Assembly (NCBI GenBank): GCA_964614645.1 | Contig: CAZTMA010000004.1 | Coordinates: 13,555 to 77,554 of the forward strand | Direction of reading: 5' to 3' | DNA from: an uncultured Anaerolineales bacterium | Lineage (GTDB): Bacteria > Chloroflexota > Anaerolineae > CG2-30-64-16 | DNA: 64,000 bases | Shown here: positions 533-62,520 of the stretch, one piece after another | Numbering within the stretch: the first letter of the stretch is position 1 | Layout: every line of letters starts with the position of its first letter | Made by a program: the position numbers and the translations under genes | The notes under the pieces: model-generated | Told to the model about the DNA's origin: nothing | The model's input: only the letters and a program-made list of their open reading frames with translations | The model's database searches: none

Positions 533-2037
533 GCGTACCGATGTCCGACGCCAACCGGCCTGACCGCACACCTGCAGGGGACGCCGATATCCCCGCCTGG
601 GTCGCGCGCCTGAACAGCGCGCCCGAGGCCCGGGCTGCCTTTCACATCCACATGGTCGGCATCGGCGGCACCGGCCTGTCGGCCATCGCCGGGTTCTTGC
701 TCCAGCGCGGCTTCACAGTGACCGGCTCGGACCAGCGGCCCAACGAAGCGACCGATGAGCTGGCCGGTCGCGGCGTCACCGTGTACCGCGGCCATCAGGC
801 CGAGCATATTGCCGGCGCCGACCTGGTGCTGGTCTCGTCCGCCGTGCCGGAGAATAACCCCGAGATTATTGCGGCGCGCGCCGCGGGCATCCCGATTGTC
901 AAGCGGTCGGACTTCCTCGGCCCGCTCATCGAAGGGCATCACGGCATCGGCGTAGCAGGCAGCCACGGCAAGACGACGACGACCAGCATGGTTGCGATTG
1001 TGCTGCTGCGCGCGGGCATGGACCCCAGCTTCATCGTCGGCGGACGGATTGCCGTCGGCCCGGCGGAAGGCACGATGATGTCCGCGACCGTCGCCGCCCG
1101 CGCGGGCGAGGGCCCCTTCGTCATCGAAGCGGACGAATATGACGGCATGTTCCTGGGGCTGCGTCTGGAAATCGGCATCGTCACCAACGTGGACTGGGAT
1201 CACGTCGATTGCTACCCCACCCCGGCGAGCTTCGCCGATGCGTTCCGCAGGTACGTCGCCCAGCTCCCTGCGCACGGCCTGCTCATCGTGTGCGCGGATG
1301 ACGCGGGCGCGCTGGCGCTGCGCGACGCGCTGCAGCCGGGCGTGGCGGTCGAGACCTACGGCCTGGCCGACGGCGCCGACTGGCAGGCGCGCGACCTCGC
1401 GCCGAACGAGCGCGGCGGATTCGATGCGGAAGCGTGGCACGCAGGCACGCCGGTGGCCCATCTGAGCCTGTCCGTGCCGGGCCGCCATAACGTGCGTAAC
1501 GCGCTCGCCGCGCTGGCCGCGGCGAACTGGCACCGCATCCCACCGGCCCGCGCGGCCATCATGCTGCGCGACTTCCGGGGCGCGGGGCGGCGCTTCGAGC
1601 TGGTGGGCGAGGCAGATGGCGTGACGGTCATCGACGACTATGCCCATCACCCAACCGAAGTCGCGGCGACCCTGTCGGCCGCGCGGCTGCGCTATGCCAC
1701 GCGGCGCATCTGGGCCGTATTCCAGCCGCACACCTTCAGCCGGACGAAGGCCCTGCTGCGCGACTACGCACACAGCTTCGATGACGCGGACCGGGTGCTG
1801 TTCCTGGATATCTACCCGGCGCGCGAAAAAATCGACCTGGGGATGCACAGCCGGCTCCTGCTCGAGACCGTCAAGCACGAGGGCGCGGCCTACGTCGGAG
1901 GCATCGACGCTGCGGTCGACCGCCTGCTGGCCGAGGTCGAACCGGACGACATCGTCATCACCATGAGCGCGGGGGATGGCAACCTGGCCGGCCAACTGTT
2001 GCTCGACCGGCTGCGCGAGCGGGAGAAACGGGGGTGA
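529..2037 (+). CDS. murC: UDP-N-acetylmuramate--L-alanine ligase
   Basis: Mur ligase motifs GIGGTGLSAIAG (N-terminal Rossmann) and GSHGKTTTTSMV (P-loop); start ATG 529 overlaps upstream stop; conserved dcw position. Confidence 0.9.
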   Translation: MSVPMSDANRPDRTPAGDADIPAWVARLNSAPEARAAFHIHMVGIGGTGLSAIAGFLLQRGFTVTGSDQRPNEATDELAGRGVTVYRGHQAEHIAGADLVLVSSAVPENNPEIIAARAAGIPIVKRSDFLGPLIEGHHGIGVAGSHGKTTTTSMVAIVLLRAGMDPSFIVGGRIAVGPAEGTMMSATVAARAGEGPFVIEADEYDGMFLGLRLEIGIVTNVDWDHVDCYPTPASFADAFRRYVAQLPAHGLLIVCADDAGALALRDALQPGVAVETYGLADGADWQARDLAPNERGGFDAEAWHAGTPVAHLSLSVPGRHNVRNALAALAAANWHRIPPARAAIMLRDFRGAGRRFELVGEADGVTVIDDYAHHPTEVAATLSAARLRYATRRIWAVFQPHTFSRTKALLRDYAHSFDDADRVLFLDIYPAREKIDLGMHSRLLLETVKHEGAAYVGGIDAAVDRLLAEVEPDDIVITMSAGDGNLAGQLLLDRLREREKRG

Positions 2038-3092
2038 GCGCGCTGGCGGCCGCAGCGGAACGCACAGGCGTCGAGTTGCGACGCGCGGAACCGCTCGCCC
2101 GCCACACGACCTTCCGCATCGGCGGCCCGGCAGAGTGGTACGCGGTCGCGACGAGCACTGCACAACTGGCCGCGCTGGCTGACGCGGGGCTGGCGAACGG
2201 CTTGGCCGTGACCGTCCTCGGCGGCGGCAGCAACGTCCTGGTGGCGGATGAGGGCATACGCGGGCTCGTCATCGCCAACCAGGCGCGCGGCCACGGCGTT
2301 CAGCCCGCTGCGGACGTTGTAGATGTTGTGGAGTCCGCATCCTCAGATGCGGACCGCTCGCAAACGGAGCTCGTATCCTCAGATGCGAGCTCCTCGAGAA
2401 CCGCAGGGGACGGCGCGATTGTCCTCGTCGCTGATTCCGGCGTGCTGCTGGCAGGGCTCGCCCGCTGGGCCATCCGCAATGGGCTGAGCGGGCTGGAATG
2501 GGCCGTCAGCGTGCCTGGGACGGTCGGCGGCGCGGTCATCGGGAATGCGGGCGCGCACGGCAGCGACACCGCTGCAAACCTAGCGTGGGCGGAGGTGCAC
2601 TACCCCGGCCAGGGGACGGAACGGCTGACTTGCGAGACGCTGGCGTACACTTACCGCAGCAGCCTGCTCAAGCGGCAACTGGCCGAGAGCGACGCCCTTG
2701 CGCCGGCCCCGGTCGTCTTGTCCGCTGCGTTCAGCCTGACCTCGGGCGACACTGTGGAGATGGCCGCCCGTGCGGATGGCTACCTGGCCCGGCGCCGTGC
2801 CAGCCAGCCGGTCGAGCCGAGCGCCGGCAGCATCTTTCGCAACCCGCCTGGCGATTATGCGGGGCGGCTGGTCGAATCAGTGGGGCTGAAAGGCCATGTC
2901 ATCGGCGGCGCGCAGGTTTCGCCCCGCCATGCGAATTTCATCATCAACACGAGCAGCGCGACCGCGGCGGATGTCGTAGCGCTGATGAACCTGATGCGCC
3001 GCCGGGTCTATGAGGTGACTGGGCACGAACTCGTGCCCGAAATCCTGTTCATCGGCGCATGGGCGAGCCAGCCGCCGCTGGAAACTTTGTAG
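2034..3092 (+). CDS. murB: UDP-N-acetylenolpyruvoylglucosamine reductase, with ~45-aa in-frame insertion encoded by hairpin repeats
   Basis: RHTTFRIGGPAEWY FAD-binding N-terminus, GIPGTVGGAV, C-terminal MurB domain; GTG start overlapping murC stop (GTGA); insertion ...ESASSDADRSQTELVSSDASSS... between conserved blocks. Confidence 0.88.
   Translation: MSALAAAAERTGVELRRAEPLARHTTFRIGGPAEWYAVATSTAQLAALADAGLANGLAVTVLGGGSNVLVADEGIRGLVIANQARGHGVQPAADVVDVVESASSDADRSQTELVSSDASSSRTAGDGAIVLVADSGVLLAGLARWAIRNGLSGLEWAVSVPGTVGGAVIGNAGAHGSDTAANLAWAEVHYPGQGTERLTCETLAYTYRSSLLKRQLAESDALAPAPVVLSAAFSLTSGDTVEMAARADGYLARRRASQPVEPSAGSIFRNPPGDYAGRLVESVGLKGHVIGGAQVSPRHANFIINTSSATAADVVALMNLMRRRVYEVTGHELVPEILFIGAWASQPPLETL
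2330..2393 (+). repeat. two tandem GGAGY-stem-ATCCTCAGAT-stem' hairpin units (REP-like) embedded in-frame in murB
   Basis: ggagtccgcATCCTCAGATgcggac and ggagctcgtATCCTCAGATgcgagctcc; same unit family as at 17457-17564 and 53171-53246. Confidence 0.7.
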
Positions 3093-3251
3093 GGAAACGA
3101 GTACGACGGCTCACGCAAAGCCGCCAAGAGCGCATAGAAGATTAGATAACCTTTGCGCCTCTGCGTGAGACAAAAAAATCGCACAACCGGCGCCTTTATG
3201 CGCTTCGTAATATGCAGGGCTTAAAAATGGTAATCCCTGGAAAAGATTGCT

Positions 3252-8595: not shown

Positions 8596-8773
8596 AGATC
8601 GCGCCGACGACAATTCTGGCCCAGTCGACCGGGACAAGCTATCCGTCAGAGCCGAAGCAAGCCCTTCCAGACCACAGGTGATTCGCCGCCGTCTGTACCG
8701 GTGACCTTATTGAGTGTTAGCTTTACGCCGCTTTTTGTGGCGTTGACGATAGAATGGATGAGAGGAGTCAGGG

Positions 8774-11700
8774 ATGAAGCCCCAGGACAAAGCACGGCCT
8801 TTTGCGCCCGCATTGACACCGCCCGCCGAGTTGGAGCTTTCAGAGAATAGCCAGCAGGTACTGCGCAAACGCTATCTGCGGCGTGGGCTGGACGGTCAAC
8901 CCACCGAAACTATCGAGGGAATGTTCCGGCGGGTAGCCCGGGCCGTTGCGGAACCGGACGCCGCCCAAGGGTATGACATTCACAGCACGGAAGACAGCTT
9001 TTATGCGCTGTTGACCGATTTACGTTTCTTCCCAAATTCTCCTACTTTTACCGGGGCGGGCACGCCCCTGGGCCAGCTTGCTGCTTGCTTCGTCCTGCCT
9101 ATATCCGACGACATGGGCCGCGACTCCGCCGGTATCTTCCAAACACTGCGCGATGCTGCGCTCATCCAGCAGACCGGCGGCGGCAACGGCTTCTCCTTTT
9201 CGAACCTGCGTCCCAAGGGTGACTCCGTAGCCTCCAGCGCGGGCGTTGCCACCGGGCCGGTCGGCTTCCTGCGTGTGTACGACACGGCCTTCGGTGAGGT
9301 GGCACAGGGGGGAACCCGGCGCGGGGCCAATATGGCCGTGCTGCGCGTGGACCACCCCGACATCGAAGAATTCATCACCTGCAAGGCGCAGGAAGGTCAG
9401 ATCACCAACTTCAACATCTCTGTCGGCATTACCGATGCGTTCATGCAGGCGGTCGAAGCGGATACCGATTTCGCGCTGGTCAATCCACGCGACGGCAAGA
9501 CCTGGCGCACCGTGCGGGCGCGTGACCTGTTCGACAAGGTCGTCACCTACGCGCACCACAACGGTGAGCCGGGCGCGCTGTTCCTCGATGCAGCCAACCG
9601 CACGAACCCGGTGCCGCATCTCTACGAGCTGGCAGCCACCAACCCCTGCTTCACCGGCGACGCGCGTGTCGCGACGGATCAGGGTTTCCTGTCGCTGGCC
9701 GAACTGCACGCCCTCAACAAGCCGCTCGCTGTGGCAACCGACGAGCGCGCCCGACCGGAGTGGGTGCGTCAGGCTGGGTTCGGCACTGCCAGCCCGGTGA
9801 TGCTGACGCGCCGGAACACTCCCGTCCTGGCCCTGCGCACGACCCATGGCTACCGCGTGACCGCCACGCCTGACCACCGTTTCCTGACTGCCGACCGCGG
9901 CTACGTGCCACTGCAGGAGCTAAAACCCGGCGAGCGTTTGCTCATCCAGTCGGAAGAGGGACCCTGGTCGCAGCAGTTCGAGCTCCCCAATGTCCGCTAT
10001 ATACAGGAGAAGATGGCCGTCATGGGCCGCGGCGGCGATCACGCCAGCGGACGCACGGTTACGCGCCATGATTTCAGCGAGCTCTATGCCGCGGTGCCCA
10101 CACTGTGGAGTTATGAACTAGGTGTGGCGCTCGGCTGGCTCGTCGGCGACGGTTGGCTGAGCCCCACGAGCGGTTCGCCTGTCGGGCTGGCCTTCGGAGT
10201 CGAAGAAGGTGGTTATTGCGGGCTTGAGACCCTCCAACCCAACCTTCAGCAGTGGTTCGGCCCAGGCCATGTTCACGAGCGCGGCAGCGTCCGACAGTTG
10301 ACCTATGGCCGGCTGCCGTACGAGTTCTTCGCCTCCCTGGGGGTCTCGACCGCCTCAGCCACGGAGAAGCGGGTTCCCACCAGCCTCTGGCAGGCGCCCC
10401 GTGACGCGGTGCGCGGCTTCCTTGCCGGCCTGTTCAGCGCGGATGGCTCCGTCCAGGTCAATGAAGCGAAGCAGGACTGCACTGTGCGGCTGGCCAGCTC
10501 ATCGCGCGGGCTGATCGAGGATGTGCAGCTGCTCCTCGCCAACTTCGGTATTGCCTCCCGCATCTACCGGCGCCGTGACCAGATGACCCGCCCGATGCCC
10601 GATGGCAAGGGTGGGAGCAGGAACTACACGAGCGCACCGCAGTTCGAGCTGGTGATCGGCAAGTCGAACCGCGTCCGCTTTGCCCAGGTGATCGGCTTCG
10701 CACATCCGCGCAAGCAGACCCGTCTGCTGGAACACGCCGCAGGGGCCGTCCGCGGCGCGTACCGGGAGCGTTTCGAAGATCGCGTCGCCAGCATCGAAGA
10801 CGCCGGGACAGCGGATGTCTATGATCTCACCGAACCGTTGACCAGCAGCTTCATCGCCAACGGGTTCGTCGTGCACAACTGCGGCGAGCAGTGGCTCGGC
10901 CCGTACGAAAACTGCTGCCTGGGCTCCATCAACCTCGCTCAACATGTCACGCCAGACGGCCAGGTCGATTGGGAGAAGCTGCGCGAGAGCACGGTGGTCT
11001 CCACCCGCTTCCTGGACAACGTGGTCGACGCGAACAAGTACGTGCCGGCCGTGCCTGCGCTGCGTGAAGCCGCGCTGCGCGCCCGGCGCATCGGCCTCGG
11101 CATCATGGGGCTGGGCGACCTGATGTACCAGTTGGGCGTGCGCTACGGCTCGGAAGAGGGCCAGGAGTTCGCCGCGCAGGTCATGGAGTTCGTGCGCTAC
11201 CACTGCATGTTGACGAGCGTCGAGCTGGCCCAGGAGCGCGGACCGTTCCTCGCCATCACGGGCAGCATCTACGACCCGGCGAACCTGCGCTGGCAGCCGC
11301 CTCAGCCCATCACATCTTACCGGCACGACTGGGGCCGCCCGGTCGTGGACTGGCACCGCGTGGTGGATGGCATCAAGCAGCACGGCATCCGCAACGCCGC
11401 GCAGACCACCGTCGCACCCACCGGCACCATCGGGACGGTCGCGGGCTGCGAAGGCTACGGCTGCGAGCCGGTCTTCGCGCTGGCCTACACGCGGACGGTC
11501 AAGGACGGTACGCGCGACCTCAAGCTGACTTACACCAGCCCGTTGTTCGAGGCTGCGCTGGAGCGTGCGGGCCTGGACAAGGCCACGCGCGAACGCATCA
11601 GCGAACAGGTCAGCGCGGTCGGCAGTTGCCAGGGCCTGGAGGAAGTGCCGGAAGCCCTGCGCCACGTCTTCGTCGTATCCCAGGACATCACTGCGGAAGA

Positions 11701-12499
11701 GCACGTCCGCATGCAGGCGGCCATCCAGGCTTTCGTCGACAATTCGATCAGCAAGACGATTAACTTTCCGCCCGCAGCCACGGTGGATGATGTGGCGGAG
11801 GCCTACCTGCTCGGCTGGCATCTCGGCTGCAAGGGGCTGACGGTCTACGTCACGGGCAGCCGGCAGGAGGTCGTGCTGGAGACGAAGGCCACAGCCGAGT
11901 CGAAGGCGGCAGGTGAGGCCGCGTCCGCGGTCCCTTCCTCACCGGTTGAGACCGCGACCAAGTACCCGATGATGAAGCGTCGCCCGCGGCCCACCACCCT
12001 GCACGGTATGACCTACCGCAAGGAGACACCGCTGGGGACAGCCTTCGTCACTGTGAATATCAACGGCGGCAACCGGCCGTTCGAGGTCTTCATGAACGTG
12101 GGAAAGGCCGGCAGCGATGTCGCGGCGGTCTCCGAGGCGTTGGGGCGCCTCATCTCGCTCATCCTGCGCCTGCCCTCACCGCTTGACGAGAACGAGCGCC
12201 TGCAGGAGGTCATCGACCAGCTTGCCGGCATCGGCGGCGGCCGGTCGCTCGGCTTCGGCGCCAACCGGGTTCGGTCGCTGCCCGACGCCGTGGCCCAGGT
12301 CCTGCGCGAACATCTCAACAGCCACTTCCCGTCGGACAGCGGCGCGGTGGGAGAAAACGCCGAGCCTTATGTCGAACAGCTCCCGCTGCCCATCGCTGAC
12401 CGCGTGATCGGGGACCTGTGTCCGGACTGCGGCCAGGCGACGTTTATCCCGACGGAGGGCTGCCGCAAATGCTACGCCTGCGGCTACAGCGAATGCTGA
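8774..12499 (+). CDS. nrdJ: class II (adenosylcobalamin-dependent) ribonucleotide reductase NrdJ, intein-containing, Cys-rich C-terminal tail
   Basis: RNR barrel motifs; active-site NPC|GEQ split by intein; C-terminal CPDCGQ...[12 protein letters not shown]; GAGAGGAG SD. Confidence 0.9.
9647..10879 (+). mobile_element. intein (411 aa) with LAGLIDADG homing endonuclease domain inserted in NPC|GEQ motif of nrdJ
   Basis: Begins CFTGDARV (Cys1), ends FVVHN followed by +1 Cys of CGEQ; internal LAGLIDADG blocks GWLVGDGWL and [11 protein letters not shown]. Confidence 0.85.
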
Positions 12500-16471: not shown

Positions 16472-17446
16472 ATGCCACTCACCTTCGATTTCCCTCTCGA
16501 CAAGCTCCAGACCTACCAGGGCATCAACCCGCGACCCGCGGACTTCAACGCCTACTGGGACGCCGCGCTCGCGGAGATGCACGCGCTCGACCCACAGGTC
16601 GAACTCGTGCCCGCGGAGTTCCAGGCACCCGGCGCGGAATGCTTCCACCTGTACTTCACCGGCGTCGGCGGCGCACGCGTGCATGCCAAGCTGCTGCGGC
16701 CCAAGCACACCGCATCTGCTGCCCCGGCAGTCGTAATGTTCCACGGCTACAGCGGGCACTCGGGCGACTGGTTCGATAAGCTGGGCTATGTGGGCGCGGG
16801 CTACACCGTGGCCGCGCTGGACTGCCGCGGGCAGGGCGGCCTGTCGGAGGACAACAGCGACGTAGTGGGCAACACGCATCGCGGCCACATCATCCGCGGG
16901 CTGGCCGATGCGCTGGCCGGGCGGCCGGATAAGCTGCTGTTCCGCCAGATCTTCCTCGACACCGCCCAGCTGGCGCGCATCGTCATGGACATGCCGGGCG
17001 TGGATGCGACGCGCGTGGGTGCAACCGGCGGCAGCCAGGGCGGCGCACTGACCGTCGCATGTATGGCGCTGGAGCCGCGCATCAAGCGCGCTGCACCTAT
17101 CTTCCCCTTCCTTAGCGACTACCTGCGCGTCTGGCAGATGGACCTGGCGAAGGACGCCTACGAGGAGCTCCGCACCTTCTTCCGCCTCTTCGACCCGCGC
17201 CACCAGCAGGAAGCGGCCGTCTTCGAACAGCTCGGCTACGTGGACATCCAGCACCTGGCCCCGCGCATCCGCGCGGAGGTGCTCTGGCCCATCGGCCTGA
17301 TGGATCAAATCTGCCCGCCATCCAGCCAGTTTGCGGCCTACAACAAGATCACGTCACCGAAACGCATGGCGATTTACCCGGACTTCGGCCACGAGGGTCT
17401 GCCCGGCGTGAACGACATCGTTTTCGAGTTCCTGATGGGGCTGTAA
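16472..17446 (+). CDS. acetyl xylan esterase / cephalosporin-C deacetylase (CE7, AXE1 family)
   Basis: CE7 N-terminus DFPLDKLQTYQGINPRPADFNAYWD; GGSQGG nucleophile motif; alpha/beta hydrolase. Confidence 0.85.
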   Translation: MPLTFDFPLDKLQTYQGINPRPADFNAYWDAALAEMHALDPQVELVPAEFQAPGAECFHLYFTGVGGARVHAKLLRPKHTASAAPAVVMFHGYSGHSGDWFDKLGYVGAGYTVAALDCRGQGGLSEDNSDVVGNTHRGHIIRGLADALAGRPDKLLFRQIFLDTAQLARIVMDMPGVDATRVGATGGSQGGALTVACMALEPRIKRAAPIFPFLSDYLRVWQMDLAKDAYEELRTFFRLFDPRHQQEAAVFEQLGYVDIQHLAPRIRAEVLWPIGLMDQICPPSSQFAAYNKITSPKRMAIYPDFGHEGLPGVNDIVFEFLMGL

Positions 17447-17452
17447 TCCCAA

Positions 17453-17566
17453 ACCCGCGGAGTGGGCATCCTCAGATGCCCACGTCGGACCCGTTCCGCG
17501 TCTGAGGACGCTCCACTCCTCACGCAAGAAACGCGGAGTGGGCATCTGAGGATGCCCACTCCGCAC
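17453..17566. repeat. composite palindromic REP-like element: 3 hairpin units of the GGAGT-stem-ATC-CTCA/TGAG-GAT-stem'-ACTCC family
   Basis: cggagtgggcatcCTCAgatgcccac ... gcgtcTGAGgacgc ... gcggagtgggcatcTGAGgatgcccactccgc; first and last units are exact reverse complements. Confidence 0.7.
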
Positions 17567-45190: not shown

Positions 45191-45225
45191 CCTTCTGAAT
45201 TCCCGTTTGAGCGGGGAGATCCTCT

Positions 45226-45273
45226 TATAGGGGGTGTTCCGGGTGGCGCGGCCACCCGGAACACCCCCTATAA
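45226..45273 (+). terminator. strong hairpin terminator after DUF1080 gene
   Basis: tatagggggtgttccgggtggc-gcg-gccacccggaacaccccctata (22-bp perfect stem). Confidence 0.7.
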
Positions 45274-51500: not shown

Positions 51501-51859
51501 TGCATACAGACACCTGGCGGCAGATTGCCCCAGTCCTCGTTTCAATCCTCATTATCGTCGCAGTGGCCTTGCTGCGCAACCATTCGCGCGTGCTGGCGGG
51601 CATCCTGGGGACGATGCCCGTCAATGTCGCGCTGTCGTTGTGGATCGTCTACAGCGGCGCGAACGGCGAGAAGTCCGGCGTCCAGCAGTACACCAACACG
51701 CTGCCCTTCGGCATTCTCGGCACGGTGGCCTTCATCCTGGCTGTGTGGCTGGCTGCCCGCGCCGGTTGGAAGCTGTTGCCCATGTTAGCTGTCGGTTATG
51801 TCACCTGGGGCGTGACCCTGGCGCTGATTTTCGCCCTGAAACAATGGCTCAAGTTCTAG
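51497..51859 (+). CDS. small integral membrane protein (3-4 TM), function unknown
   Basis: 120-aa hydrophobic ORF overlapping stop of upstream gene by 4 nt. Confidence 0.45.
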   Translation: MMHTDTWRQIAPVLVSILIIVAVALLRNHSRVLAGILGTMPVNVALSLWIVYSGANGEKSGVQQYTNTLPFGILGTVAFILAVWLAARAGWKLLPMLAVGYVTWGVTLALIFALKQWLKF

Positions 51860-53102
51860 GGACCGCCAGCGCCAGCAGCGGGATCTCCATCTCCTGCCGC
51901 GTCAGGCCGCCGTGATGCCCGTAGAACCGCTGCTCGAAGCGGTCCTTCTCATACCACCACACCGCCTCACCGTGATACGGCAGGATGACCAGGTTGCCGA
52001 GCCGCGCGCGCAGCACATCTGACGGCGGCTCGCTGCCGAAGAAACCCGCCTCAACGAGGTCGGCCGTACGCGCGACCTGCGCGATGCCAGCCAGCCGCTC
52101 CGCAAAGAACGCCTGCGCCTCGGCCAGGAGGGCCTCCTCCACGTACAGGAAATAGTCGCGCACCGAGCCGGCCGGCTCGCGCGGCTTACCCTTGCCGTTC
52201 TGCACCAGGTAGCGTTCATACCCCTTGAACCGGCCATCTCGGTTGATGTAGATGCACGTGGCCGGATCCGTCTCCATCATGCCGTGGTCTGCGGTCAGCA
52301 GCACCAGCGTATCCTGCTGCGGCGCGAGCGGTGCGAGAAAGTGCCGTTCCAGCGCAGTCAGGAACAGGTCGATCTCAGCAGCCACGTGCGGCGAGTTGGG
52401 TCCGTACTCGTGGGCCAGCCCGTCAATCCGGTCGTAGTAAAGCAGGAAGTAGGCCAGCCCCTCAGCCTTCGCCAGGGCCCTGCGCGCGTTGACGAGCGCC
52501 TCCGCCAGGGAGCGATATCCGGCCGTCTGCGCGCCTGCCATCAGCGCGTCTGTGTATGTGGACTGCAGGTACTCGCGGTGCTGGAAGATGGTTGCGCGGA
52601 TGCCGAACTCAGCAAGATCCTGGTAAATCGTGTGCGTGGGGAGGATGCGCTTGGGGTCGACCTTCGCCTTGCGCAGTTGCTCGCGATCCTTGGTCCCCGC
52701 CCAAGAATAGAGCAGCGGGACCACCACTGCGTCCACCTCCGGCTCGTAATACTGCCACTCATAGACGCCGTGCCGGCCCACTTCCTGTCCCGTGTGCAGG
52801 CTGGTGATGTGCGCCGCGGTCGTGGAAGGGAACTGCGTGGTGAACCGGTTCGCGCGGCCATACTTCAGGAAACGCTGCAGGGCCGGGCATTGCTCCGCGT
52901 ACTGCTCGATGAAGCGCCAGCCGAACCCGTCGATAACGAACAGCACCACCGCACCGTAGGGCGCGGCACGGTCGGGCAGCGTCTCCGGGGACAGCAGAAT
53001 AGGCTGCTGCCCGGTCAACAGACCGGCAATGCTCGGGGGAATCGCGGAGAAGCAGTGCCCGTCGTAGACCGGCGGGATGAAGTGGGGATCAAGTTGGAAC
53101 AT
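51849..53102 (-). CDS. alkaline-phosphatase-superfamily enzyme (type I phosphodiesterase/nucleotide pyrophosphatase family)
   Basis: VIDGFGW metal-site motif, TADHGM; start set at MFQLDPHF (ORF N-extension 53103-53306 is repeat DNA). Confidence 0.7.
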   Translation of the reverse strand: MFQLDPHFIPPVYDGHCFSAIPPSIAGLLTGQQPILLSPETLPDRAAPYGAVVLFVIDGFGWRFIEQYAEQCPALQRFLKYGRANRFTTQFPSTTAAHITSLHTGQEVGRHGVYEWQYYEPEVDAVVVPLLYSWAGTKDREQLRKAKVDPKRILPTHTIYQDLAEFGIRATIFQHREYLQSTYTDALMAGAQTAGYRSLAEALVNARRALAKAEGLAYFLLYYDRIDGLAHEYGPNSPHVAAEIDLFLTALERHFLAPLAPQQDTLVLLTADHGMMETDPATCIYINRDGRFKGYERYLVQNGKGKPREPAGSVRDYFLYVEEALLAEAQAFFAERLAGIAQVARTADLVEAGFFGSEPPSDVLRARLGNLVILPYHGEAVWWYEKDRFEQRFYGHHGGLTRQEMEIPLLALAVPRT

Positions 53103-53170
53103 GACGACCTTGTCAGAAACTGGAGTCGAGGCTGGCGAGTGTTGACCGTTAATTTCTGTGATCGACCGGT

Positions 53171-53246
53171 GGAGTTCCGCATCCTCAGATGCGGAACGGC
53201 CCGCCTGAGAGGCAGCACCGTTTGCATCTGAGGATGCAAACTCCTC
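53171..53246. repeat. composite palindromic REP-like element: two mirror hairpin units (CTCA and TGAG loops) flanked by GGAGT...ACTCC
   Basis: ggagttccgcatcCTCAgatgcggaac ... gtttgcatcTGAGgatgcaaactcc; preceded at 53121 by GGAGTCGAGGCT motif. Confidence 0.7.
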
Positions 53247-53253
53247 TTTATAC

Positions 53254-54078
53254 TCAGAAGATGTTCTGCTGGACGTTGAACGCGCGGCAGATGGTGCGCA
53301 TTTCATCGTCCGACAGGCCCTCGGCCTGCTCGCCGTTGACCAGGTTCATGTACTCGTACCTGGCGCCGGTCTCTGCATACTCGATGCGGTCGGAGGCGCG
53401 CTTCACGGACTGGTCCGAGCGGGCCATCACGCCGTGCTTGGCCCACAGCACGACCCGGTGCGTGCGCAGGGTTTCGACCGTTGCCGCCATCAGCTCCGGG
53501 GAGCCCGGCAGGCGGAACGGGATGACGCCGACTCCCTCGGGCAGGTTGATGATGGTCTCCGGCTGCCAGCGGAGCAGCCGCCGGTTGAGAAAAGACTCGT
53601 CCAGATAGCGCGGGACGTGGCTCAGATAGGTCAGGTGCGGCGGCTGCGCGTGGATGACGGCGTGGAAGTTCGTGCCGGTCAGCGCAACCTGGTCGCGGTG
53701 CACCGAGAGGTGCGAGTTGAACTCGCTGGTCAGCCGGGCGTACAGGCGGCGCTGCGAGGTGTAGAGTCTGCCCGTGACGCCGCCTTCATCCACGATGACG
53801 CAGCCCAGATTTGCCGCGGGGTCGTGGATGATCTCGCGCAACCGCCGGCCCGACCCGCTCACCAGGAACGCACGGCCCGCCAGTTCGGGCAGGGGCTCCG
53901 GCAGGACGAGCGTCTCGACATTCGGGAAGACGCGCCGGGGGTCCAGGGGCCAGCCCACATACACCGAGATGTTGCCCGCGGCCGCTTCGGTTGCGTCGAT
54001 CTCGGACATGCGCTGCCCGGCCTCGCCCATCAGGGTCAGCAGCTCGCTGAGTTCAGGATAAGGTGTTTCGATTGCCAC
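53254..54078 (-). CDS. class II aldolase/adducin-family protein
   Basis: Class II aldolase fold motifs (metal-binding His region); 274 aa. Confidence 0.7.
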   Translation of the reverse strand: MAIETPYPELSELLTLMGEAGQRMSEIDATEAAAGNISVYVGWPLDPRRVFPNVETLVLPEPLPELAGRAFLVSGSGRRLREIIHDPAANLGCVIVDEGGVTGRLYTSQRRLYARLTSEFNSHLSVHRDQVALTGTNFHAVIHAQPPHLTYLSHVPRYLDESFLNRRLLRWQPETIINLPEGVGVIPFRLPGSPELMAATVETLRTHRVVLWAKHGVMARSDQSVKRASDRIEYAETGARYEYMNLVNGEQAEGLSDDEMRTICRAFNVQQNIF

Positions 54079-62469: not shown

Positions 62470-62510
62470 AGCTCTTTTGCTGGCCTGGTTTCACCAGGCC
62501 AGCAAAAGAG
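62470..62510. terminator. strong bidirectional terminator hairpin between AKR (+) and GNAT (-)
   Basis: gctcttttgctggcctgg-tttca-ccaggccagcaaaagagc, 18-bp perfect stem. Confidence 0.75.
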
Positions 62511-62520
62511 CATCAATGAT

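Follow-up and report, generated by a model that had tools for sequence, protein, structure and literature searches.

The locus described here raises the question of how two short palindromic units came to be translated within murB, an essential gene, and whether the peptide that they encode is an adaptation of the enzyme or a passenger. Our analyses of the surrounding 64-kb stretch of DNA, hereafter the window, led us to a reading that we consider very probable: the murB hairpins are copies of a REP family of the Chloroflexota, which were inserted in frame and are tolerated as a passenger rather than being a MurB adaptation. The coordinates of the features are collected in Table 1.

Table 1. 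murB, its inserted segment and the REP units of the window. CM, covariance model.
Feature	Position	Strand	Description
murB CDS (UDP-N-acetylenolpyruvoylglucosamine reductase, predicted)	2034..3092	+	352 aa; hosts the insertion
Segment missing from the empty-site murB alleles (L002, L209, L210)	2304..2408	+	Encodes PAADVVDVVESASSDADRSQTELVSSDASSSRTAG
REP unit 1	2330..2354	+	GGAG tag, then 9-bp perfect stem GTCCGCATC/GATGCGGAC, loop CTCA; CM match 2326-2361, 46.6 bits, E 8e-11
REP unit 2	2366..2393	+	GGAGCTCGTATC-CTCA-GATGCGAGCTCC, 12-bp stem with one T.G pair; CM match 2362-2397, 33.2 bits, E 5e-07
Intergenic REP unit	17455..17490	+	GCGGAGTGGGCATC-CTCA-GATGCCCAC; CM 46.4 bits
Degenerate REP unit	17491..17518	-	GGAGTGGAGCGTC-CTCA-GACGCGG; weak CM match, 11.1 bits
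Full-length intergenic REP unit	17531..17566	-	14-bp perfect stem GCGGAGTGGGCATC/GATGCCCACTCCGC; CM 47.4 bits; inverted (+/-) pair with 17455-17490
REP unit	53168..53203	+	GTGGAGTTCCGCATC-CTCA-GATGCGGAAC; CM 36.5 bits
REP unit	53213..53248	-	GAGGAGTTTGCATC-CTCA-GATGCAAAC; CM 44.5 bits; inverted partner of 53168-53203

The identity of the host gene can be settled from its product. PDB MurB entries match it over both halves (E 1.7e-48), its homologs carry PF01565 and PF02873 (FAD_binding_4 and MurB_C), and a protein alignment of the window MurB with 26 orthologs contains 108 invariant columns. The dcw cluster of relatives runs in the order murC-murB-ddl-ftsQ-ftsA-ftsZ, and a megablast search of the window against the fetched loci returned solely relatives at ~88% identity. 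By its architecture, conserved motifs and dcw context, the gene is murB, and its product is the predicted enzyme. A preliminary description of this DNA had reported two tandem REP-like hairpins inside murB with the frame intact. This is borne out by the sequence from 2330 to 2393, GGAGTCCGCATC-CTCA-GATGCGGAC ... GGAGCTCGTATC-CTCA-GATGCGAGCTCC, and by the ORF, which reads through both units as ...ESASSDAD...ELVSSDASS.... The loop centres of the two units are spaced by 36 nt, or 12 codons, and the pair has a tandem (+/+) orientation, a minority arrangement in the family.

The core ATCCTCAGAT occurs six times in the window, at 2339, 2375, 17468 and 53181 on the plus strand and at 17544 and 53226 on the minus strand. 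Only 0.08 occurrences are expected, and none of 100 shuffled sequences reached six. A covariance model trained on 70 copies, all from other genomes, recovers the same six places (E <=5e-07). The window thus holds six to seven copies in 64 kb, four to five of them intergenic, with stems of 9-14 bp, a 4-nt CTCA loop and, in six of six units, a GGAG tag. The copies at 17453-17566 follow an AXE1 esterase gene whose end is at 17446, in agreement with the intergenic location first proposed for them. The same location had been proposed for the copies at 53171-53246, which lie between an aldolase-like gene (minus strand, stop at ~53254) and a phosphodiesterase gene (minus strand, probable start at 53103). 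As it stands, that proposal has to be qualified, since the copies fall within the longest possible ORF, 51849-53306 on the minus strand. However, the Pfam domain of this ORF begins only at residue 120, an internal Met is available downstream of the units, at 53103, and the ORF overlaps the aldolase gene upstream if it is begun at its first ATG. The real start therefore most probably excludes the units, which would be intergenic or in a 5' UTR.

Beyond the window, the family has the consensus G[C/A]GGAGT-N2-3-GCATC-CTCA-GATGC-N'-AC. Each unit carries a conserved 5' tag, G[C/A]GGAG(T), and the 14-nt hairpin top GCATC-CTCA-GATGC is invariant, while the inner 2-4 bp of the stem vary yet stay complementary. 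The pattern GGAG-N3-4-GCATCCTCAGATGC was found in more than 116 stretches from ~56 assemblies, and the labels of the matches listed are nearly all Anaerolineae, Caldilineales, Ardenticatenaceae, Promineifilaceae or Chloroflexota. Because the alignment used (A3) was chosen for stems of at least 8 bp and the scan pattern imposed GGAG, covariation and tag are partly circular in these data, and both were judged instead on an independent sample of RAYT loci (described below) and on the window copies. The stem is extended by at least three contiguous pairs at 44% of the GCATCCTCAGATGC sites, against ~5% by chance.

The units are mostly intergenic and often form inverted pairs; the orientations of neighbouring units were +/- in 15 cases, +/+ in eight, -/- in five and -/+ in two. 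Arrays occur at four loci (L035, L079, L051 and L026), one of which (L035) has 10 pattern matches in ~500 bp. In other genomes, the units lie mainly just downstream of genes, including those for solute-binding proteins. An all-vs-all clustering of unit-adjacent ORFs yielded large generic families alone, with no recurrent neighbour gene, and the ORFs bracketed by units proved to be ordinary genes (dtd, solute-binding proteins, E2 acyltransferase) instead of transposases. Copies inside coding sequences were called by listing ORF spans and checking Pfam domains, which left genuine cases at three loci among ~120 examined. In-frame pairs lie inside the Pfam domains of a RACo-like protein (L081) and a DUF2079 protein (L010), while the in-ORF copies at a TrpRS (L093), a GntR (L094) and a YkuD protein (L068) gene, like that at 53181 of the window, are upstream of the real start. 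The family is therefore a short stem-loop palindrome in dispersed, mainly extragenic copies, with inverted doublets and arrays and with a REPtron in relatives, as expected of REPs in the broad sense. Together, the excess of the core, the matches across genomes and those of the covariance model uphold the earlier assignment of the murB units to a dispersed REP-like family. A literature search for the exact 14-mer hairpin top returned no paper.

Comparison with other murB alleles delimits the insertion. The closest MurB orthologs have 86-89% nucleotide identity, and four such alleles lack the segment; it is absent from L002-L004, L209 and L210 in the DNA alignment and from P0002-P0006 in the protein alignment. 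The insertion is thus lineage-specific, as had been anticipated. Compared with the closest orthologs, the gene is longer by a net 34 codons in the DNA and protein alignments, and the boundaries of the segment are ambiguous by a few nucleotides. The preliminary description had put the added segment at ~45 aa, a figure that includes native loop residues. The segment was also said to lie in a loop between conserved MurB blocks, and the structural data agree. The site corresponds to residues 100-110 of 1HSK in the alignment with PDB MurB, where the two FAD-binding subdomains meet. In the AlphaFold model, pLDDT is <50 over three or more residues in one stretch only, residues 99-125, which is framed by two strands modelled with confidence (87-91 and 129-134). 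The inserted peptide is of low complexity and predicted to be disordered, while the rest of murB shows a dN/dS of 0.16-0.24, indicating purifying selection. The loop at the junction of the FAD subdomains of MurB therefore tolerates ~34 extra disordered residues under continued purifying selection.

This loop varies in length across the Anaerolineae, with a 24-nt tandem duplication in P0018/L208 and unrelated inserts in P0014, P0053 and P0077. In addition, imperfect direct repeats of 12-13 nt (CCGCTGCGGACG / CCGCAGGGGACG) flank the filled site, and GCGGAC repeats bound unit 1. These features would be expected if slippage during replication, or a tandem duplication, had produced the segment locally within a loop of variable length and without any mobile element, its resemblance to the dispersed units being secondary. 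We regard this explanation as highly improbable, and the family census has already largely disproved it: units 1 and 2 have their 10-nt core, GGAG tag and hairpin geometry in common with five other copies in the window and hundreds elsewhere, and there is a negligible chance that the exact 10-mer arose twice in murB. Moreover, the stems of units 1 and 2 differ by compensatory changes, and the two are therefore not simple duplicates of one another. A REP hotspot in this loop is not supported beyond the window and one further allele (L001), as the inserts of P0053/L206, P0077/L207 and P0018/L208 contain no clear REP units, but small palindromes and the one 24-nt tandem duplication.

The L001 allele, from an independent assembly (GCA_034429055.1), is informative. 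It carries an insertion at the same codon, with the same flanks as in the window, but unit 1 is missing, as a 39-nt in-frame gap bounded by the GCGGAC repeats, and a different hairpin replaces unit 2. L001 is nevertheless sister to the empty allele L002, with 92% identity overall and 91.8-96.7% in windows away from the insert. Since L001 shares the flanks but differs in the hairpins, slippage, gene conversion or recombination clearly contributed to the filled site. The same allele bears on the possibility that the REP units entered the murB of a metagenome contig through chimeric joining at short repeats. The window indeed appears to come from an uncultured lineage of the Chloroflexota, the close relatives are all MAGs or metagenome contigs, and the exact window MurB protein has no match in a collection of 15 billion proteins. 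However, the independent assembly has its insertion at the same codon and with the same flanks; the insert is in frame and stop-free, with murB collinear on either side, and the units, at ~30 nt, are below the length of a sequencing read. Such an artefact is barely credible, and the least probable of the explanations considered here.

The preliminary description had suggested a search for a RAYT/IS200-type transposase. On a Caldilineaceae chromosome (OZ243888.1; L103), a Y1_Tnp gene (PF01797, E 3.9e-6) is preceded by a unit at a distance of ~30 nt. The product of this gene was the only significant phmmer match of E. coli RayT among the sequences searched (E 2.6e-5). At L125, a RAYT gene is preceded by three units and followed by three. 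When 80 metagenome loci were retrieved with the RAYT protein as the sole criterion, 11 of them proved to have the 10-mer both upstream and downstream of the RAYT gene, at distances of up to 200 nt. The RAYT loci contain 69 units in total, from 16 of 81 loci: GGAG is the tag of 56 and GTAG of six, and seven have none, so that a 5' G[GT]AG is present in 62/69, while the complementary 3' CT[CA]C is found in just 9/69. Several of these loci, L126, L162 and L165 among them, share one layout: the closest unit before the RAYT gene has the orientation of that gene and lies 25-45 nt from its ATG, and the closest unit beyond it is inverted and follows the stop codon by 19-26 nt. The family is therefore associated with an IS200-type RAYT transposase in other Chloroflexota and in unassigned metagenome contigs, and its bracketing of Y1/HUH RAYT genes is the classical REPtron layout. 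Within the window, a Chloroflexota RAYT query found no RAYT gene, and tblastn with E. coli RayT gave no significant match.

The remaining RAYT loci have other types of flanking hairpin, including GTAG-tagged ones. As L128/L129 have the same hairpin with a GTAG tag, and hairpins with this tag and a CTCT loop flank related RAYTs, GGAG looks like a one-base variant of the GTAG tag. RAYTs of Group 4 are reported to be frequent in Caldilineae and Cyanobacteria (PMC5581495), and the Chloroflexota RAYT probably belongs to this group; we found no description in the searchable literature of the REPs of Chloroflexota Group 4 RAYTs.

The closest precedent is the survey of Di Nocera et al. (2013), in which GTAG- and CGTC-tagged REPs are mostly extragenic and often inverted dimers, some being linked to RAYTs as REPtrons (PMC3733652). 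A minority of those REPs lie in frame in housekeeping genes, where the encoded peptides span 20-30 aa for dimers and 43-82 aa for clusters, and a GTAG family, GTAG-23, was described in a member of the Chloroflexi, Thermomicrobium roseum (PMC3733652). Our units resemble them as short tagged stem-loops that are mostly extragenic, form inverted pairs, are linked to RAYTs and are in frame in a minority of cases. They differ in the tag (GGAG in 56/69 and GTAG in 6/69 of the independently sampled copies), and the window units lack the terminal GTAG tetranucleotide that defines the GTAG superfamily. They also differ in the host gene, which is murB here, whereas the emphasis there was on DNA replication and repair genes, and in spread, the 14-nt top being found across several Chloroflexota orders rather than in one species or genus. 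The systems of Pseudomonas and Enterobacteria (Nunvar 2010, PMC2817692; Bertels & Rainey 2011, PMC3116915; Ton-Hoang 2012, PMC3479197) likewise comprise dispersed inverted REP doublets (REPINs), inverted REPs bracketing a Y1/HUH transposase gene, and a 5' tetranucleotide tag beside a hairpin whose stem varies with compensatory changes. The phylum and tag are different, however, and the Chloroflexota RAYT is distant from E. coli RayT.

The in-frame behaviour alone is analogous to that of the Rickettsia palindromic elements (RPEs), as the murB units are ~30 nt long, GGAG-tagged and RAYT-associated, and belong to Chloroflexota. RPEs reportedly lie in frame in functional genes, adding surface peptides with function kept, as Ogata and colleagues are said to have described in 2000. 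RPE-1 is ~100-150 bp long. The short RPE-4 and RPE-6 are CGTC-tagged and confined to Rickettsia (PMC3733652); neither an RPE consensus or CGTC tag nor a Rickettsia host is found here. MITEs, too, are small, non-autonomous repeats through which a reading frame can continue, and their insertion can extend or fuse ORFs (reviewed in PMC10969869). MITEs bear terminal inverted repeats that match an IS, and they duplicate their target site over a defined length; the units of the window are single ~30-nt hairpins without IS-like ends, and the murB site has no fixed-length duplication. No repeats like those flanking the murB site were noticed at the two intergenic sites of the window. The in-frame REP pair of murB is thus a further case of a phenomenon known in other bacteria, from Rickettsia and from the survey of Di Nocera et al., and in principle the situation is not the unusual one that it was first taken to be. 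The points that are mildly new are the GGAG tag in place of GTAG and the phylum-wide conservation of the hairpin top.

How the units reached murB can be proposed from these data. RAYT-mediated transposition, by an IS200/IS605-like mechanism acting on the single-stranded hairpin, may have delivered them; recombination or slippage involving REP units would be an alternative route. Mobilization of the family by the putative RAYT agrees with two indirect signs, the presence or absence of the murB insert among alleles of 86-89% identity and the varied hairpin types flanking RAYT loci. Against it are the GGAG tag of the window units, rather than the canonical GTAG, the tandem orientation of the murB pair, and the 12-13-nt imperfect flanking repeats, which are unexpected from RAYT/IS200-type transposition and mean that the filled site is not clean. 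Survival in an essential gene would have required a length divisible by three and no stop codon (the REP core is open in five of six frames), as well as a hydrophilic Ser/Asp/Ala peptide placed in a solvent-exposed, length-tolerant loop. Under these constraints, the insert would be repeat DNA, selfish or semi-domesticated, that the gene tolerates as a passenger. The peptide is of low complexity, predicted to be disordered and absent from close relatives, which fits such a passenger and leaves the earlier idea of a palindrome domesticated into the MurB loop unsupported.

Another possibility would be that the hairpins were retained for a role in cis on the transcript or DNA of the dcw operon. 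They might stabilize the mRNA or block RNases, make transcription pause or attenuate it, or bind gyrase or a nucleoid protein. This co-option at the nucleic acid level is compatible with a REP origin. The stems are near-perfect (9/9, and 12/12 with one G.U), and the RNA of 2315-2405 is predicted to fold into two very stable hairpins (-43.5 kcal/mol, z = -5.2). L001 bears a different hairpin at the homologous position, and the family lies mainly just downstream of genes, the classical site of mRNA-stabilizing REPs (PMC3733652). Recent insertion predicts intact stems equally well, however, and four closely related alleles have no hairpin there at all. Furthermore, a gathering scan of the window matched no Rfam family, and the murB hairpins are not followed by a terminator-like U-run on their 3' side; a tRNA scan of the window also found nothing. 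We therefore consider a cis role unlikely.

Returning to the tolerated REP insertion, a broader reading may be considered, although we hold it only tentatively, and its parts jointly. The hairpin top and the GGAG tag, constant across several orders, would presumably be held by a vertically inherited RAYT; the family may recurrently seed disordered loops in core proteins (MurB, the RACo-like activase and the DUF2079 protein); and the insert-bearing segment of murB may spread between lineages by homologous recombination, as L001, sister to an empty allele, shares the insert flanks with the window. If so, this would be a REP-RAYT system of ancient origin, integrated into its hosts and with an influence on how their proteins evolve, and not a species-level selfish repeat.

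The REP insertion in murB does not overturn current understanding. It provides one more clean example of protein sequence created by repeat DNA, and it puts on record a REP-RAYT system of the Chloroflexota (Anaerolineae, Caldilineae and related groups). Given their conservation across orders, the GGAG tag and the 14-nt top offer a convenient marker for Chloroflexota contigs. The occurrence of GTAG and GGAG tags and of CTCT, CTCA and CCCA loops alongside different RAYT genes also forms a natural series for hairpin recognition by RAYTs.

The REP-like hairpins reported within murB were confirmed, and they read in-frame. Unit 1 forms a 9-bp stem without mismatches and unit 2 a 12-bp stem including one T.G pair, both with a CTCA loop. 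With 36 nt between the loop centres, the murB frame reads the units as ESASSDAD and ELVSSDASS. The window has six copies of the 10-mer ATCCTCAGAT, common to both, where 0.08 would be expected, and none of 100 shuffles gave six. A covariance model trained only on copies from other genomes retrieved exactly these six sites in the window (E <= 5e-07) and nothing else convincing. A further hairpin on the forward strand at 51596-51622, CGGGCATC-CTGGGGAC-GATGCCCG, has the GCATC/GATGC closing stem of the REP units but an 8-nt loop; its match to the model is weak (12.3 bits), and so it may represent a decayed copy or a variant of the unit.

Features located in the window
Feature	Position	Strand	Details
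murB ORF	2034-3092	+	352 aa
murB REP units 1 and 2	2330-2393	+	GGAGTCCGCATC-CTCA-GATGCGGAC, then CGCTCGCAAAC, then GGAGCTCGTATC-CTCA-GATGCGAGCTCC
Intein with homing endonuclease in ribonucleotide reductase gene	9649-10879, in ORF 8762-12496	+	Intein_splicing + LAGLIDADG_3 (Pfam), residues 348-706
Inverted pair of REP units	17455-17566		two of the four non-murB copies of ATCCTCAGAT
Degenerate REP copy	17498-17511		GCGTC-CTCA-GACGC
Long perfect hairpin, apparently intergenic	45225-45273		23-bp stem TTATAGGGGGTGTTCCGGGTGGC, loop GCG
Inverted pair of REP units	53168-53248		other two of the four non-murB copies of ATCCTCAGAT
Long perfect hairpin, apparently intergenic	62471-62511		19-bp stem GCTCTTTTGCTGGCCTGGT, loop TTC

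The preliminary description placed this insertion in a loop and expected it to be lineage-specific, and both proposals were borne out. Three distinct empty-site alleles lack positions 2304-2408: L209, L210 and L002, the last of these found in identical form as L003 and L004. Over the rest of murB, the three share 86-89% identity with the window. At the protein level, the nearest relatives among 26 orthologs (P0002-P0006) read VQ-(E)D(N)PHC-LVADSG where the window MurB reads VQ-PAADVVDVVESASSDADRSQTELVSSDASSSRTAGDGAIV-LVADSG and is longer by a net 34 residues. Solved MurB structures match in two blocks, and the stretch at query residues 84-128 has just residues 100-110 as its counterpart in S. 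aureus MurB (1HSK). In the S. aureus structure, FAD-binding domains 1 and 2 reportedly join at residue ~100. In an AlphaFold model (mean pLDDT 82.4), the sole segment below 50 comprises residues 99-125, flanked by confident strands at 87-91 and 129-134. Outside the insert, murB has a dN/dS of 0.16-0.24 versus relatives and the MurB alignment retains 108 invariant columns; the gene therefore looks functional. That the segment is an assembly artefact is scarcely credible, as the frame is preserved and the independent L001 assembly also carries an insert. Other Anaerolineae MurBs contain unrelated inserts in the same loop, with no clear REP units present in them. Separately, one Anaerolineae MurB (P0018, encoded at L208 623-1747) carries a perfect 24-nt tandem duplication there, CCCGGAACAGCGGGGCATGCTATG twice, giving PGTAGHAM twice; the loop is evidently prone to changes of length in general.

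The unit was expected to recur beyond murB, and it does. A scan of 185,579 species-representative genomes for GGAG-N3-4-GCATCCTCAGATGC found at least 116 stretches in at least about 56 assemblies. Among the matches listed, the labels are nearly all Anaerolineae, Caldilineales/Caldilineaceae, Ardenticatenaceae, Promineifilaceae, Ca. Leptofilum, Dehalococcoidia SAGs or Chloroflexota, and they include DAOUGK, the closest relative assembly of the window (L068, L090 and L117). A lone Terracidiphilus match among them (L037) falls within coding sequence, has no hairpin and is apparently due to chance. The units share the consensus G[C/A]GGAGT-N2-3-GCATC-CTCA-GATGC-N'2-3-AC(TCCGC); full-length units have a 14-bp stem (e.g. 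window 17533-17564), and many keep the 5' GGAG while missing the outer 3' arm. Adjacent units predominantly form +/- pairs, in which the tags point outward (15 versus 2 -/+), tandem pairs as in murB are a minority, arrays exist (10 pattern matches within about 500 bp in L035), and the flanked genes are ordinary ones, among them dtd, solute-binding proteins and an E2 acyltransferase. In anatomy, the units are REP/BIME/REPIN elements. The family census contradicts an origin of the murB segment by purely local slippage, which we consider very improbable.

A link to REP-associated transposases (RAYTs) emerged from the relatives. Searched against the fetched loci, E. coli RayT from MG1655 detected one ORF, at the end of a Caldilineaceae locus (L103, chromosome OZ243888.1), which starts about 30 nt past a REP unit and encodes a Y1_Tnp protein (PF01797), one of whose database homologs carries the name RayT from JGI. 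Another RAYT gene (L125), apparently frameshifted, has the HUH motif PDHIHLL and the Tyr motif YIHRNP, with three REP units before it and three after. A metagenome scan seeded by RAYT protein alignment alone, and thus independent of the DNA pattern, yielded 80 loci (L126-L205), 11 of which have ATCCTCAGAT both upstream and downstream of the gene, at most 200 nt away. The RAYT loci hold 69 units, in 16 of 81 loci; in this pattern-independent sample the 5' tag is GGAG in 56, GTAG in six and absent in seven, and only nine have the complementary 3' CT[CA]C. In several loci (e.g. L126, L162 and L165), the closest upstream unit shares the strand of the RAYT gene and lies 25-45 nt ahead of the ATG, and the closest downstream unit is inverted, 19-26 nt past the stop, which is the REPtron arrangement of a RAYT gene bracketed by inverted REPs. 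The remaining loci are flanked by sister hairpins, such as GGAGT-CGGCGCT-CTCT-AGCGCCGAC, GTAGT-CGGCGTT-CTCT-AACGCCGAC and GGAGT-N-GCACG-CCCA-CGTGC, and the type varies by locus among GGAG/CTCA-, GGAG/CTCT-, GTAG/CTCT- and GGAG/CCCA-loop forms. The GGAG/CTCA family therefore seems to derive from classical GTAG REPs and to change in step with its RAYT, and these loci offer a ready-made series for RAYT-hairpin co-evolution. The 64-kb window contains no RAYT gene, and we infer the association for its organism from these relatives.

We regard it as highly probable that copies of a REP family, presumably mobilised by a RAYT through single-strand hairpin recognition, landed in the loop-coding part of murB; they would have been kept because they preserve the frame, bring in no stop codon and add a hydrophilic segment that does the structure no harm. 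The overall interpretation of the preliminary description is held correct and its finding real, while its term "domesticated" is unsupported. Folded as RNA, the murB segment forms two hairpins (-43.5 kcal/mol, z = -5.2); that they act in cis in the transcript of the dcw cluster, which would be compatible with a REP origin, seems unlikely.

One clean event does not account for the history of the insert. At the same codon as in the window murB, L001 (GCA_034429055.1) carries an insert of 19 residues, and its flanks (CCCGCTGCGGACG ... GCAGCGGACGG) are also the same. Unit 1 is missing from L001, where a 39-nt in-frame gap is bordered by GCGGAC repeats, and a different hairpin, GGGGCGGAC-ACGCAG-GTCCACCCC, stands at the position of unit 2. 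Overall, L001 is the sister of the empty allele L002, with 92% identity across murB and a dS of 0.18, versus 0.33-0.44 to the window (L001 10001-11014, L002 10001-10969 and window 2034-3092 compared). In 150-nt windows away from the insert their identity is 91.8-96.7%; around the insert site it falls to 75-87%, and directly downstream L001 is similar to the window. This mosaic points to recombination or gene conversion of the insert-bearing tract, or to rapid local turnover; the flanks common to L001 and the window suggest recombination. Imperfect direct repeats of 12-13 nt on both sides of the insert are at odds with the prediction for an IS200-type element, and slippage or recombination with REP units therefore probably contributed.

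A palindrome in-frame within an essential gene had been called unusual. The phenomenon is established for functional genes: Rickettsia RPEs and a survey of GTAG/CGTC REPs document in-frame palindromic insertions in housekeeping genes, with dimers of 20-30 aa and clusters of 43-82 aa, and GTAG REPs are known from one Chloroflexi member, T. roseum (PMC3733652). The murB case is a further example rather than a new phenomenon. RAYT Group 4 is reportedly common in Caldilineae (PMC5581495). By broad criteria the window family is a REP family: it forms a hairpin, its copies are dispersed and largely extragenic, they occur as inverted doublets, and they flank RAYT genes. Its GGAG tag, however, is a one-base variant that sets it apart from strictly defined GTAG REPs. 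Our literature searches found no paper containing the 14-mer and no description of REPs in Anaerolineae or Caldilineae. The hairpin top, constant across Chloroflexota orders, and the hairpin types that differ with the RAYT genes may interest specialists.

Among about 120 loci examined for in-gene copies, units within long ORFs lie mostly upstream of the true start, as for TrpRS (L093), GntR (L094) and a YkuD protein (L068). The pair at 53181 in the window is likewise predicted to be upstream, because the Pfam domain begins at residue 120 and an internal Met follows the units. Genuine in-frame insertions number two: a +/- pair within the ASKHA domain of a RACo-like protein (L081), reading ASSDA...ASEDS, whose RACo_C_ter match spans 342 residues versus a 261-position profile, and a pair within the DUF2079 domain of a membrane protein (L010), reading HPQM...ASEDA. 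By inspection, five of the six reading frames through the REP core are open, which helps explain the survival of read-through copies.

Other features of the window were also noted. The ribonucleotide reductase gene is about 1.2 kb longer than its L002/L004 ortholog (1245 aa versus 836 aa), and its Intein_splicing and LAGLIDADG_3 matches identify the extra segment as an intein with a homing endonuclease. In the murB-ddl spacer (3093-3251), the window, L001 and L209 carry an indel segment of about 112 nt that L002 and L210 lack. It includes a long, imperfect hairpin (CTCACGCAAAG...CTGCGTGAG) with an A-run after it, and it alters the MurB C-terminus (PPLETL-stop versus PPLEPLCKL-stop); no further copy was found in the window or the fetched loci. 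In sequence, the two long perfect hairpins bear no relation to the REP family; they may be terminators or another element.
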